DNA of 64,000 nucleotides from an uncultured bacterium (GTDB lineage: Bacteria; Actinomycetota; Acidimicrobiia; Spongiisociales; UBA5794), in assembly GCA_963801165.1 (NCBI GenBank), contig CAWDDT010000005.1, positions 1 to 64,000 of the forward strand. The letters are read 5' to 3'. This document shows, in pieces, positions 38,443 to 41,440 of this stretch. Numbering within the stretch: the stretch's first letter is position 1; each line of letters starts with the position of its first letter. A program made the position numbers and the translations under genes. The notes below the pieces were generated by a model. That model was not told where the DNA came from. It saw nothing but the letters and a program-made list of their open reading frames with translations, and did no database searches.

Positions 38443-39423
38443 TCAGGAGAATGCCGGAAAGACCTCACGAGCGAAAAGCTCCAGACCGGATGTGTCGTAC
38501 GCCGCATCCTGGAAATAGACAATCGCATAGGTGAGCCCGGCTGCAACCCACGGCTGCAGCTTGGCCACCAGCTGCTCGGGTGTACCCGCCGTGGCCCGGA
38601 ACATCCGCTCCAATCCTTCGAGTCGGTCCGGTGTGACAAATGGCCGGTAGCGATCGAGGATCGCGCCGACTTTGTCATCGACCTCCGCCTCTGTTGCGGC
38701 GCACACCACGTTGAAGTTGGATGACCGCACGATTGCATCGAAGTCCGAGCCGACGTCGACGCAATGGCCCGCCAGTACCTCGGATTTGTGCACGAACTCG
38801 TCCACGTCGATGCCAAAGTTGGTGTAGGAGGCGTAGCGGGCCGCGACATTGAGGGTGAGCTTCTCGCCCCCGCCTGCGATCCAGAACGGGATGTGCGGTT
38901 GCTGCACCGGCTTGGGACGGCAGATCGCTCCATCGAGCGTGTAGTGCTTGCCTTCGAAGTGGACCTCGTCCTCGGTCCACAGCCGTTTCATGATCTCAAC
39001 GGCCTCACCGAGCTCACCGATTCGGACCGAGGGCTTGGGAAACGGGAAGCCATAGCCGTTGTACTCGTGCTCGTACCAGCCGGCACCGATCCCCATCTCG
39101 ACCCGCCCGCCGGATATGGCGTCGATCGAGACGGCGACCTTGGCAAGGTACGAGGGCGACCGGTATCCGTTGCAGGTACACATCTGGCCGAGACGCACCT
39201 TGTCGGTGGTGGCGGCCAGGGCAGCCATGAGCGTCCAAGCCTCATAGGTGACTTCCTGGGTGGGCACCGGGACGGTGTGGAAGTGGTCGTACACCCACAC
39301 CGACTCATAGCCGGCGGCCTCGATTGTCTTGGCGACCGACAGCATCGTCGGCCATTGCTGCTCGGTCTCGATCCCGACCAGATCGAGACGCCATCCTTGC
39401 GGGACAAATGCTCCGAATCTCAT
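38443..39423 (-). CDS. F420-dependent LLM-class oxidoreductase
   Basis: FVPQGWRLDL, WVYDHFH, RLGQMCTC, GIGAGWYEHEY and IAGGGE; TAGTTT 6 nt before ATG. Confidence 0.92.
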   Translation of the reverse strand: MRFGAFVPQGWRLDLVGIETEQQWPTMLSVAKTIEAAGYESVWVYDHFHTVPVPTQEVTYEAWTLMAALAATTDKVRLGQMCTCNGYRSPSYLAKVAVSIDAISGGRVEMGIGAGWYEHEYNGYGFPFPKPSVRIGELGEAVEIMKRLWTEDEVHFEGKHYTLDGAICRPKPVQQPHIPFWIAGGGEKLTLNVAARYASYTNFGIDVDEFVHKSEVLAGHCVDVGSDFDAIVRSSNFNVVCAATEAEVDDKVGAILDRYRPFVTPDRLEGLERMFRATAGTPEQLVAKLQPWVAAGLTYAIVYFQDAAYDTSGLELFAREVFPAFS

Positions 39424-39490
39424 GAGGGGAAACTACACCAAACACCGGCAACGTTCGCCGATGGCCACACGCCGGGCCGGAAACAACGTC

Positions 39491-39518
39491 TTGACCGCCC
39501 TTTGATCTGAGCTACTCT
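39491..39518 (+). promoter_or_regulatory. Housekeeping-sigma promoter of the Cys leader and operon
   Basis: TTGACC (39491-39496)-N16-TACTCT (39513-39518), 8 nt before ATG 39527. Confidence 0.7.
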
Positions 39519-39526
39519 GAATGCCG

Positions 39527-39595
39527 ATGAAGTACGCACTCGCCGCCGCCGCATGTTGCTGTTGTTGTTGCGACAGCACAATGCCGCGCGGATAG
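39527..39595 (+). CDS. Polycysteine leader peptide (attenuator sORF), MKYALAAAACCCCCCDSTMPRG
   Basis: Six consecutive Cys codons TGT TGC TGT TGT TGT TGC at 39554-39571, directly upstream of a cysteine-synthase-family gene. An in-frame ATG at 39521 is too close to the -10 to be transcribed. Confidence 0.88.
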   Translation: MKYALAAAACCCCCCDSTMPRG

Positions 39596-39634
39596 GACGA
39601 GATGTAGCCACAACTAGCAGCACAAGACTCAACC

Positions 39635-39670
39635 ACCCGTGACGGCAAGCCGTTACGGGTTTTCTTTTTC
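39635..39670 (+). terminator. Attenuator intrinsic terminator in the 5' leader
   Basis: ACCCGTGACGG-caag-CCGTTACGGGT (11 bp, one G-U) followed by TTTCTTTTTC, ending 11 nt before the downstream ATG. Confidence 0.88.
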
Positions 39671-39681
39671 TGGAGCATGAA

Positions 39682-40668
39682 ATGACAGCCACCATCTCGA
39701 ATACGGAGACATCTCTCGGTACCGACACCGGGGTACGCCGGTTCGACGACATCCGGGATCTGCTCCCGAACGTCGACAACCCCACACCCCTCGTTCGACT
39801 CAACCATGTCGCCCCGAACACGTATCTGAAGCTCGAGTGGCTCAACCCGTTCGGCTCGGTAAAAGACAGGGCCGCGGCCTACCTGCTCGCCGGAATCATC
39901 GAACGGGGCGAGCTGGACGGGCGTGATCTCGTCGAAGCGTCATCCGGAAACACCGCGATCGCTCTGGCCGCTCTCGCCGGGCTCGTCGGAAAACGGCTCA
40001 CTGTCACCATCCCCGATGGCGTCCCCGAAGAGAAGAAGGTGATGTTGCGGATGCTCGGCGCCGAGGTGTGGGAGACACCCGACGATCTGTGCCCTGTCGA
40101 CCACCCCAAGGACGGTGCCATCGCCCTCGCACGCTCGCTGGCCGCGTCGGAGGGCGGGAGGCGCTTCGTGATGGCCAACCAGTACGAGAACGAGGACAAC
40201 GTCAAGGCTCACTACGAGACCACCGGCCCTGAGATATGGCGCCAGACAGATGGCCGCGTCAGGTACTTCGTCGCCGGTCTCGGAACGACGGGAACGATCA
40301 CGGGGACCGGCCGCTATCTCAAGGAGCGGGATCCGTCCATCCAGGTCATTGCCATCGAGCCAAACCCGGGCCATCGCCTCCCCGGGCTCAAGAGCTTCGC
40401 CGAGGCGAAGGAGCCGGGAATCCTCGACTGGAGCGTTATCGACGACGTGGTCCGCGTCGCCGACGAGGACGCCTATGAGATCACCAAACGTCTGCACCGT
40501 GAGGAGGGCCTCATCGTCGGCCCGTCGACCGGCGCCGTCGTCCACGCCATGACCGGGCTTGCCGACACCGACTCCGCCATCGCAGTCGGGATCTCTCCCG
40601 ACTCCGGTTCCAAGTACTCGAGCTACTTCGCCGGCATCCTCGGCGACGAGGGCCTCCCCCGAATCTGA
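39682..40668 (+). CDS. PLP-dependent cysteine synthase family protein (CysK/CysM-like)
   Basis: NPFGSVKDR (PLP Lys), ASSGNT, GLGTTGT, GPSTGA and PDSGSKY; RBS GGAG. Confidence 0.9.
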   Translation: MTATISNTETSLGTDTGVRRFDDIRDLLPNVDNPTPLVRLNHVAPNTYLKLEWLNPFGSVKDRAAAYLLAGIIERGELDGRDLVEASSGNTAIALAALAGLVGKRLTVTIPDGVPEEKKVMLRMLGAEVWETPDDLCPVDHPKDGAIALARSLAASEGGRRFVMANQYENEDNVKAHYETTGPEIWRQTDGRVRYFVAGLGTTGTITGTGRYLKERDPSIQVIAIEPNPGHRLPGLKSFAEAKEPGILDWSVIDDVVRVADEDAYEITKRLHREEGLIVGPSTGAVVHAMTGLADTDSAIAVGISPDSGSKYSSYFAGILGDEGLPRI

Positions 40669-40679
40669 TAGGAAGAACC

Positions 40680-40931
40680 ATGGATATTGAACAGCTCGAA
40701 GCAACCGACACTCTCGACACCAGCGGGCTCTTGTGCCCCCTCCCGGTTTACAAGGCCGGAATCGCGCTCGGCAAGCTCGAGCCCGGCCAGATTCTCCGCT
40801 TGATTTGCACCGACCCCGGCTCTCTTGCCGACATCCCCGCCATGGCGCGCCAGCGGGGCGACACGCTGCTGGCCAGCGACAGCACGGAAGGTTCGCAGGT
40901 GTTCTGGATCGAGAAAGGGTCACAGACATGA
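40680..40931 (+). CDS. tusA: TusA/SirA-family sulfur carrier
   Basis: LDTSGLLCPLP (CPxP persulfide site), L.PGQIL, TDPGS..DI and terminal IEK. Confidence 0.9.
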   Translation: MDIEQLEATDTLDTSGLLCPLPVYKAGIALGKLEPGQILRLICTDPGSLADIPAMARQRGDTLLASDSTEGSQVFWIEKGSQT

Positions 40932-41440
40932 CTGCACTCGAAAGACCGGCCGATCTCGAGCCCGGTGCGGAACCCGCACGCAAGCGACTGGCGCTGGTGG
41001 CTTCGAAAGGAACTCTGGACCAGGCCTACCCCCCGCTCATCCTGGCGACCACCGCGGCCAGCCTGGGCTGGGAAGTCGGCATCTACTTCACCTTCTACGG
41101 TCTCGACATCCTCCACAAGGATCGTATGGAGCACCTCAAGGTGGCATCGCTGGCCAACCCTTCCGGCCCGATTCGTGTTCCCAATCTCCTGGGGGCGATG
41201 CCCGGCGCAACTGCGGCCGCAACCAAGATGATGAAGAACTGGATGAAGAACGCAAAGATGCCCGACCTCGCCGAATTCATGGACATGGCCCGCGATCTCG
41301 GCGTCACGTTGTTCGCCTGCGCCACGACCATGGGCGTGATGGGGGTCAAGGACTCAGACTTGATCGAGGGGTGTGATATCGCCGGAGCCGCCGCCTTCCT
41401 CGACTTCGCCGCCGGCGCCGACGTCCAATTGTTCATCTGA
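40928..41440 (+). CDS. DsrE2-like (DsrE/F/H family) sulfurtransferase
   Basis: KGTLDQAYPPLILA, YFTFYGL, FACATTMGVMG, GAAAFL and QLFI; ATGA overlap with tusA. Confidence 0.88.
   Translation: MTALERPADLEPGAEPARKRLALVASKGTLDQAYPPLILATTAASLGWEVGIYFTFYGLDILHKDRMEHLKVASLANPSGPIRVPNLLGAMPGATAAATKMMKNWMKNAKMPDLAEFMDMARDLGVTLFACATTMGVMGVKDSDLIEGCDIAGAAAFLDFAAGADVQLFI

Follow-up and report, generated by a model that had tools for sequence, protein, structure and literature searches.

In the analysed window (a 64,000-bp stretch of DNA from an uncultured bacterium of the class Acidimicrobiia), the region upstream of the cysM-like/tusA/dsrE2 operon very probably encodes a transcription attenuator of the classical ribosome-mediated type, with charged tRNA-Cys as the sensed signal. 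Conservation across orthologous loci, covariation and constrained folding all point to this reading. They also back the mechanism of the original prediction, in which a ribosome stalled on cysteine codons would let an antiterminator form, and a ribosome at the stop codon would let the terminator form. The features of the locus are as follows.

39491–39518, + strand: candidate housekeeping promoter TTGACC-16 nt-TACTCT (sequence; conserved −10 box)
39527–39595, + strand: leader ORF of 22 aa, MKYALAAAACCCCCCDSTMPRG followed by a stop codon (ORF reading; 113 homologous leaders)
39536–39605, + strand: predicted protector (1:2) hairpin, formed when the leader is untranslated, in which Ala/Cys codons hold segment 2 (−34.1 kcal/mol; folding)
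39554–39571, + strand: putative sensor, six Cys codons (codons 10–15), four TGT and two TGC (sequence)
39583–39591, + strand: segment 2, the antiterminator 5’ strand, GCCGCGCGG (duplex energy, conservation)
39596–39634, + strand: C/A-rich linker, the antiterminator loop (composition, spacing)
39635–39670, + strand: intrinsic terminator with the stem at 39635–39660 and the U-tract at 39660–39670 (folding, covariation)
39672–39675, + strand: GGAG, the Shine-Dalgarno (SD) sequence belonging to the first gene and located 12 nt past the hairpin (sequence)
39682–40668, + strand: PLP-dependent cysteine-synthase-like protein of 328 aa, closest to CysM (OASS-B) (PF00291)
40680–40931, + strand: TusA-family sulfur carrier of 83 aa (PF01206)
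40928–41440, + strand: DsrE2-like sulfur carrier of 170 aa, with an ATGA overlap with tusA (PF13686; NF047629 below the cut-off)

According to the proposed mechanism, the ribosome would load on the leaderless or nearly leaderless AUG of the leader ORF. When cysteine is scarce, it would stall on the Cys codons and leave segment 2 (39583–39591) exposed. The exposed segment would pair with the emerging 5’ arm of the terminator, the terminator would come too late, and the cysM-like, tusA and dsrE2 genes would be transcribed. When cysteine is plentiful, the ribosome would reach the stop codon and cover segment 2, or it would depart and the protector hairpin would take this segment. In either case, the terminator would form and transcription would end near 39666–39669. 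We infer the start site, the translation of the leader, the stalling and the termination as they would take place in the cell.

All elements of the leader named in the original prediction, that is, the promoter, the ATG at 39527 lacking an SD sequence, and the ORF of 22 codons, six of which encode Cys (four as TGT), are read directly in the sequence. The −35 box TTGACC occupies positions 39491–39496, and the −10 box TACTCT at 39513–39518 is followed by 8 nt and the ATG. The output of a consensus promoter scan did not include the TTGACC-16-TACTCT promoter (0 sites found). The TANNNT pattern occurs 4–11 nt upstream of the start in 110 of the 113 homologous leaders described below versus 66 of 5372 random ATG/GTG codons, a count favoured by the choice of the leader starts, which relied partly on the −10 score. 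At least four of six −35 positions match in 66 of these 110 leaders. The distance from TANNNT to ATG peaks at 8–9 nt in the 113 leaders and at 6–7 nt genome-wide, that is, the leader spacing is 1–2 nt above the leaderless peak of the genome, and therefore the mRNA may carry 1–3 nt upstream of the AUG. The predicted transcription start is 39525–39527, yielding a leaderless transcript or one with a leader of 1–2 nt. SD-like words precede the start in only two of the 113 leaders. The in-frame upstream ATG at 39521 was rejected as the leader start, since no more than 2 nt separate it from the −10 box.

The leader ORF ends with TAG at 39593–39595, and a second in-frame TAG is found at 39605–39607. 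Two close homologues (L002 and L025) have GAG in place of the former, and their stop matches the latter. Hence the TAG at 39593 is either a recent shortening of the ORF or an assembly error; both stops are compatible with the attenuator model. The run of six Cys codons is unique in six frames of the 4.55-Mb genome, where runs of three, four, five and six number 470, 35, 1 and 1, respectively. The 113 leaders contain 581 Cys codons, of which 308 (53%) are TGT; across 1285 long genomic ORFs the share of TGT is 29%. The folding z-score of the leader region is −2.46, with 6 of 200 shuffled sequences folding equally well. The tRNA genes detected in the genome include one tRNA-Cys(GCA) and a tRNA-Sec. 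The divergently transcribed neighbor (38443–39423, − strand) encodes an F420-dependent LLM oxidoreductase (TIGR03560), with a −10-like TAGTTT 6 nt before its ATG; this gene adjoins the locus in several genomes of the same genus. A single metatranscriptome run, with 0.06 of words present and no read cover over 39363–40325, was uninformative.

The sample for the conservation analysis comprised 401 genomes of the order. A close orthologue of the CysM-like enzyme (E ≤ 1e-100) was found in 115 genomes from 8 of 12 families; genomes G050 and G631 enter the tallies only. After nine duplicates were dropped, 120 distinct orthologous loci including the window were obtained, five of which are ended by the contig, leaving 115 assessable loci. 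The Cys-rich leader, the GCCGYGCGG-type segment and the terminator are present in fixed order and spacing in 113 of these 115 loci, a proportion that shows conservation and is not a probability, because related loci are not independent. The original prediction had proposed this comparison of orthologous upstream regions, and both the Cys-rich leader and a covarying terminator stem were indeed found in them. The 113 loci belong to Acidimicrobiia, except two records titled Gemmatimonadota (L063 and L064), both with tusA and dsrE2. In the other two assessable loci, the leader is frameshifted with the RNA elements intact (L187, genome G268), or a short direct repeat replaces the leader (L139, genome G206).

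The homologous leaders are 18–32 aa long and contain 2–8 Cys. The first Cys is at codon 5–13 in 112 of the 113 leaders, 96 have a run of at least two Cys and 17 have the CxC pattern only. The numbers of TGY triplets in the three frames of the leaders are 581, 104 and 98. Cysteine accounts for 23% of leader residues and a PRG/PCG word recurs, as might be expected if the ORF encoded a functional small Cys-rich peptide, binding metal or sulfur, on its own short transcript, with the terminator constitutive and leaky. However, the leader peptide is otherwise unconserved and the Cys spacing is variable, the longest run ranging from one to six; the PRG/PCG word derives from a nucleotide motif, other frames being used too; and Met or Thr codons occupy the same scaffold before metY or hom. 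A functional peptide is thus the explanation we hold hardly credible.

The transcription attenuator reading assigns two alternative partners to the 5’ arm of the terminator (segment 3), which can also pair with segment 2. The strong hairpin with a U-tract at 39635–39670 noted at the outset is present here, conserved and covarying. Its stem has 11 pairs (−18.6 kcal/mol) and the tail TTTTCTTTTT; across homologues 85% of alignment cells are paired, 51 are changed on both sides, and none of 500 shuffles scored as high. At least 6 U per 9 nt are found downstream of the stem in 90 of 113 homologues, and at most 4 U in the tail of 10. Weak U-tracts in some homologues, the C-rich and G-poor linker (A 33%, C 36% over the 113 loci) and the Rho-dependent control proposed for actinobacterial cys leaders in the accessible part of PMC1262725 would suit an attenuator with a different input or output, responding to general translation stress or to the depletion of Cys-tRNA by oxidation, or acting by Rho-dependent termination on the C-rich linker. 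Such an attenuator is nevertheless improbable, given the strong covarying stem and U-tract in most homologues and sensor codons that match the pathway in every pattern match with a leader and an identified gene (36 matches, see below).

Returning to the attenuator that senses tRNA-Cys and acts through the intrinsic terminator, segment 2 is complementary to the terminator 5’ arm in all 113 homologues. The conserved antiterminator is formed by 39583–39591 and 39637–39646, with 82% of cells paired in the plain MAFFT alignment of the 113 homologues versus 25–52% for slid partners of segment 2. The energy of this duplex is −15.7 kcal/mol here (median −16.2, range from −21.8 to −9.2 over the 113 loci). 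In 92 of 109 cases, no control window taken upstream pairs as well as segment 2; against shuffled segments, p ≤ 0.05 was reached in only 56 of 113. Covariation of the antiterminator is not significant on the plain MAFFT alignment (156 of 500 shuffles, with double-sided changes in only 8 cells), which is expected if one near-invariant arm serves two helices. All-against-all cross-pairing (residual −1.04 kcal/mol) was set aside as evidence, since it is inflated by kinship, and therefore a tree-paired test was preferred. For 38 independent pairs taken from the tree of downstream proteins, half of which are fragments of 50–74 aa, the pairing of segment 2 is stronger with its own arm than with that of the relative in 22 cases and weaker in 6, with 10 ties (sign test, p = 0.004). 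Segment 2 is read in all three leader frames (80/24/8), and therefore the constraint acts on RNA. The distances are restricted as well: the median from the last Cys codon to segment 2 is 8 nt, segment 2 starts 10–26 nt before the stop and is 38–53 nt from the terminator arm, and the stop-to-arm distance is 27–39 nt (5th–95th percentile).

Two helices of the original prediction had to be revised. The proposed antiterminator, 39587–39601 with 39628–39641, has the right register and a real duplex (−10.1 kcal/mol), but misses the GCCG:CGGC half, with which the full duplex reaches −20.4 kcal/mol. Its distal pairs, 39599–39601 with 39628–39630, form here but are only 34% paired across homologues; this distal extension was rejected as a conserved part, as it rises above shuffles only through the shared core. 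The second helix, between the Cys codons and the linker (39554–39570 with 39605–39622), does exist, at −16.3 kcal/mol, but is local to this genome. It forms here only with the ribosome parked on the stop codon (P 0.84), outperforms shuffled linkers in no more than 7 of 113 homologues and does not covary, and was likewise discarded as a conserved part. The conserved protector is the local hairpin between the Ala/Cys codons and segment 2, rather than the Cys:linker helix. In the folds without a ribosome, segment 2 is paired upstream with this local protector in 101 of 113 leaders, and 7 of 20 pairs are changed on both sides in the consensus fold of 16 close leaders. No Rfam family, including T-box, SAM riboswitch and amino acid leader models, matched at the gathering score; the four matches obtained scored 16–19 bits versus cut-offs of 45–78 (best E 0.16).

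The states of the switch were folded with a finite ribosome footprint (−18 to +12) on a transcript that stops 3 nt before the base of the hairpin. The probability of the terminator exceeds 0.5 in 81 of 113 leaders with no ribosome, in 19 with the ribosome at the first Cys codon, in 58 at the last Cys codon and in 73 at the stop; thus the originally suggested comparison of masked states came out with the terminator disfavoured at the first Cys and favoured at the stop. The ribosome-dependent shift of the terminator has the predicted direction in 58 leaders and the opposite one in 5. For 452 controls with a shuffled 3’ part of the leader, the terminator probability in the stalled state exceeded 0.5 in 66%. 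For the window sequence, it equals 0.00 and 0.04 at the first and last Cys, 0.55 at the stop and 1.0 for the untranslated leader. When all RNA 5’ of the leading edge of the ribosome was masked, the arm was held upstream in 108 of 113 leaders at the first Cys and in 1 at the stop. The stop state is less clean with the finite footprint (37 of 113 versus 1 of 113), for which this measure is poorly specific (above 0.5 in 42% of shuffled controls); it was replaced there by the probability of the terminator stem. With the full hairpin present and the ribosome stalled, the terminator still wins at equilibrium (P 0.98 for the window; 69 of 113 leaders), and therefore the switch needs kinetic control, presumably of the kind known for trp.

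The same folds bear on translational attenuation as in mycobacteria, where the position of the ribosome would gate the SD of the first gene, the hairpin being only a part of the fold. The sole poly-Cys leader shown experimentally, Ms5788A, acts translationally and not by termination, according to the accessible part of bioRxiv 10.1101/834739. Moreover, little distance separates the hairpin from the SD here (median 14 nt over the homologues), and weak pairing of the SD with the U-rich tail is possible (mean unpaired 0.32–0.35). But the access to the SD changes by more than 0.3 between stall and stop in only 4 of 108 leaders, and its constancy in the remaining 104 argues against the mycobacterial mechanism. 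Further, the distance from the hairpin to the SD varies from 9 to 70 nt, while the U-tract keeps its fixed place at the stem. Translational control of this type is very improbable.

The first gene under the candidate transcription attenuator encodes a CysM-like protein, which matches cysKM/cysM models with E 1e-74 or better, yet below every curated NCBIfam cut-off, and its reaction is a prediction; the best PDB match is OASS-B 2jc3 (E 2.8e-59). In 54 orthologous loci with enough DNA, tusA is found downstream of the cysM-like gene in 52, and dsrE2, in 49. We infer that the operon works in the biosynthetic direction. A histidine kinase ORF on the minus strand shares its last 87 nt (41354–41440) with the end of dsrE2.

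When the genome was scanned blindly for the combination of a −10 element, a short ORF (sORF) and a terminator, the search yielded eight leaderless sORFs at 212 terminator-like sites. Six of them are matched to the downstream gene by amino acid: Trp/trpS-like, Leu/leuS-like, Phe/pheS-like, Phe-Tyr/DAHP synthase, Met/metY and the Cys leader of the cysM-like gene, the trpS-, leuS- and pheS-like names being read from N-termini only. Therefore the organism uses leaderless attenuators routinely. Individual sites include Phe/Tyr before DAHP synthase (C4:157343), FAF before the pheS-like gene (C6:171884), LL before the leuS-like gene (C9:180452, − strand) and WW before the trpS-like gene (C11:110167, − strand).

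Covariance model R1 of the scaffold detected two further copies in the genome of the window. One (L204, G000:C5:313851–313972) has a CCC leader and the same type of hairpin with a U-tract, and precedes a cysK gene scoring above the cut-off and a cysE-like gene; it has counterparts in L296, L293, L249 and L252. The other (L203, G000:C11:28770–28901) carries an MMCM sensor on the same scaffold before metY and a metX-like gene, and is a candidate methionine attenuator. Met-rich leaders precede metY in 24 of the best 30 loci (one at a contig end, five without a leader), with 135 of 201 genomes matched. Thr-rich leaders on the same scaffold were observed in two relatives before the homoserine dehydrogenase gene hom (L265, G152:C7:159597; L308, G096:C9:118763). 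In three loci (L307 of genome G322, L358 and L373) the cysM-like gene is absent and the Cys leader directly precedes tusA-dsrE2; therefore the sulfur carriers alone would be under leader control there.

A scaffold pattern blind to the sensor gave 50 matches in metagenomes: 29 Cys leaders, 10 Met leaders and 11 matches without a leader. The Cys leaders precede the cysM-like gene in 24 cases and tusA in 2 (in 3 the gene was not read), and all Met leaders precede metY. The sensor codons fit the downstream pathway in all of the 36 matches with a leader and a gene identified by N-terminus reading. The shared core words and spacing suggest a common origin of the Cys, Met and Thr scaffolds. It is rather probable that these elements form a modular attenuator family in which one scaffold (GCCGYGCGG ... 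CCGCACCGG ... GCGG-U tract) has been duplicated with only the sensor codons swapped. This reading covers Cys (cysM-like/tusA/dsrE2, cysK, tusA), Met (metY) and Thr (hom) in one Acidimicrobiia order and has the scaffold reaching Gemmatimonadota and Acidobacteriota; it also includes that the family is undescribed and that sulfur amino acid synthesis is run by ribosome attenuators.

Beyond the close orthologues, five distant paralogues (L026–L030) have no leader. Model R1 applied to 67 more distant homologues (L065–L131) gave full matches with E < 1e-6 in three (L093, L104 and L105), all Acidobacteriota-type records. About a dozen distant homologues (L081, L112, L082, L084, L099, L109, L111, L118, L119, L126, L129 and L130), in records titled Acidobacteriota, Phycisphaerales, Myxococcaceae, Planctomycetaceae and others, have a Cys-rich sORF without the scaffold terminator or without its U-tract; possibly, these are translational or Rho-dependent variants. 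The covariance-model search outside the order produced no strong match (best E 4e-4 in the class sample and 3.7e-5 in the phylum sample), and none of the six class-sample matches examined was a Cys leader. Three leaders from other classes of this phylum have terminators on different scaffolds: a Cys leader upstream of a gene for a NirA-type reductase (L272, G654:C35:3601), a Met/Cys leader (L276, G551:C8:31771) and a Phe/Tyr/Trp leader (L267, G641:C20:37181).

The locus resembles trpL, hisL, leuL, thrL and pheL in having a short upstream ORF (uORF) with cognate codons, a protector, an antiterminator and a terminator with a U-tract, and downstream genes that are predicted to match. The Cys codons are clustered and in frame, the terminator is intrinsic, the antiterminator excludes it, and the spacing fits, with a folding contrast between stall and stop that is weaker for the finite footprint; the downstream CysM-like, TusA and DsrE2-like proteins score below curated cut-offs, and the sister copy precedes a cysK above the cut-off. 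By these testable features the element is most likely a classical leader-peptide transcription attenuator of textbook design with a new sensor, cysteine; it differs from classical attenuators in this sensor and in sharing its scaffold core with versions for Met and Thr found in the same order. A comparative survey of attenuators was reportedly published in 2010 by Lopatovskaya, Seliverstov and Lyubetsky. A literature search restricted to papers outside subscription did not turn up a cysteine attenuator of the terminator type or any work on the cysM-like/tusA/dsrE2 operon.

In the accessible parts of PMC1262725 and PMC8079986, actinobacterial trp, trpS, leuS and ilvB leaders are described as classical attenuators. 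The latter source, to the same extent, reports leaderless trp, leu and ilv attenuators; trpL1 and leuL2 of S. lividans are leaderless with intrinsic terminators, as proposed here. It also gives a precedent for the Met sister element, the leaderless S. lividans metL with Met/Cys codons before metNIQ, which, as described there, has no typical intrinsic terminator and controls import, not synthesis. The portions of PMC3766115, PMC2965389 and PMC5314783 that were available contain no cysteine leader.

Mycobacterial Ms5788A and Rv2334A, as far as the available text of bioRxiv 10.1101/834739 describes them, are leaderless short ORFs with runs of Cys codons upstream of operons for cysteine metabolism, and a genome carries several of them. 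The leader ORF considered here, with its predicted leaderless or nearly leaderless start, is similar. The original prediction noted that such sORFs act mainly by SD sequestration; in that text this holds for Ms5788A, the only member dissected, with no termination, whereas at the locus considered here the intrinsic terminator covaries and SD masking does not depend on the ribosome state. Of the traits of the mycobacterial class, it has consecutive Cys codons (six), but not SD masking without a terminator, and it is not a member of this translational class. The same preprint text states that uORF attenuation for cysteine was previously undescribed, and the accessible part of PMC13236596 still handles cysteine loci as translational. 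The cys leaders predicted in PMC1262725 (Cys runs before cys/cbs operons of Mycobacterium, Propionibacterium and Bifidobacterium) have, in its accessible part, no conserved terminator hairpins and a proposed Rho dependence, in contrast to the terminator found here.

If the attenuator reading is true, cysteine, and methionine via the sister element, would join the amino acids for which classical attenuation by a terminator and an antiterminator is known; the cysteine case published so far is translational. It would tie the CysM-like/TusA/DsrE2 operon, whose function is predicted, to cysteine supply, and would provide a portable switch of 150 nt whose input is apparently changeable by codon swap. 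It would also show how sulfur amino acid synthesis is controlled in an abundant uncultured group; if the modular family is true as well, this synthesis would be run there by ribosome-read transcription attenuators.
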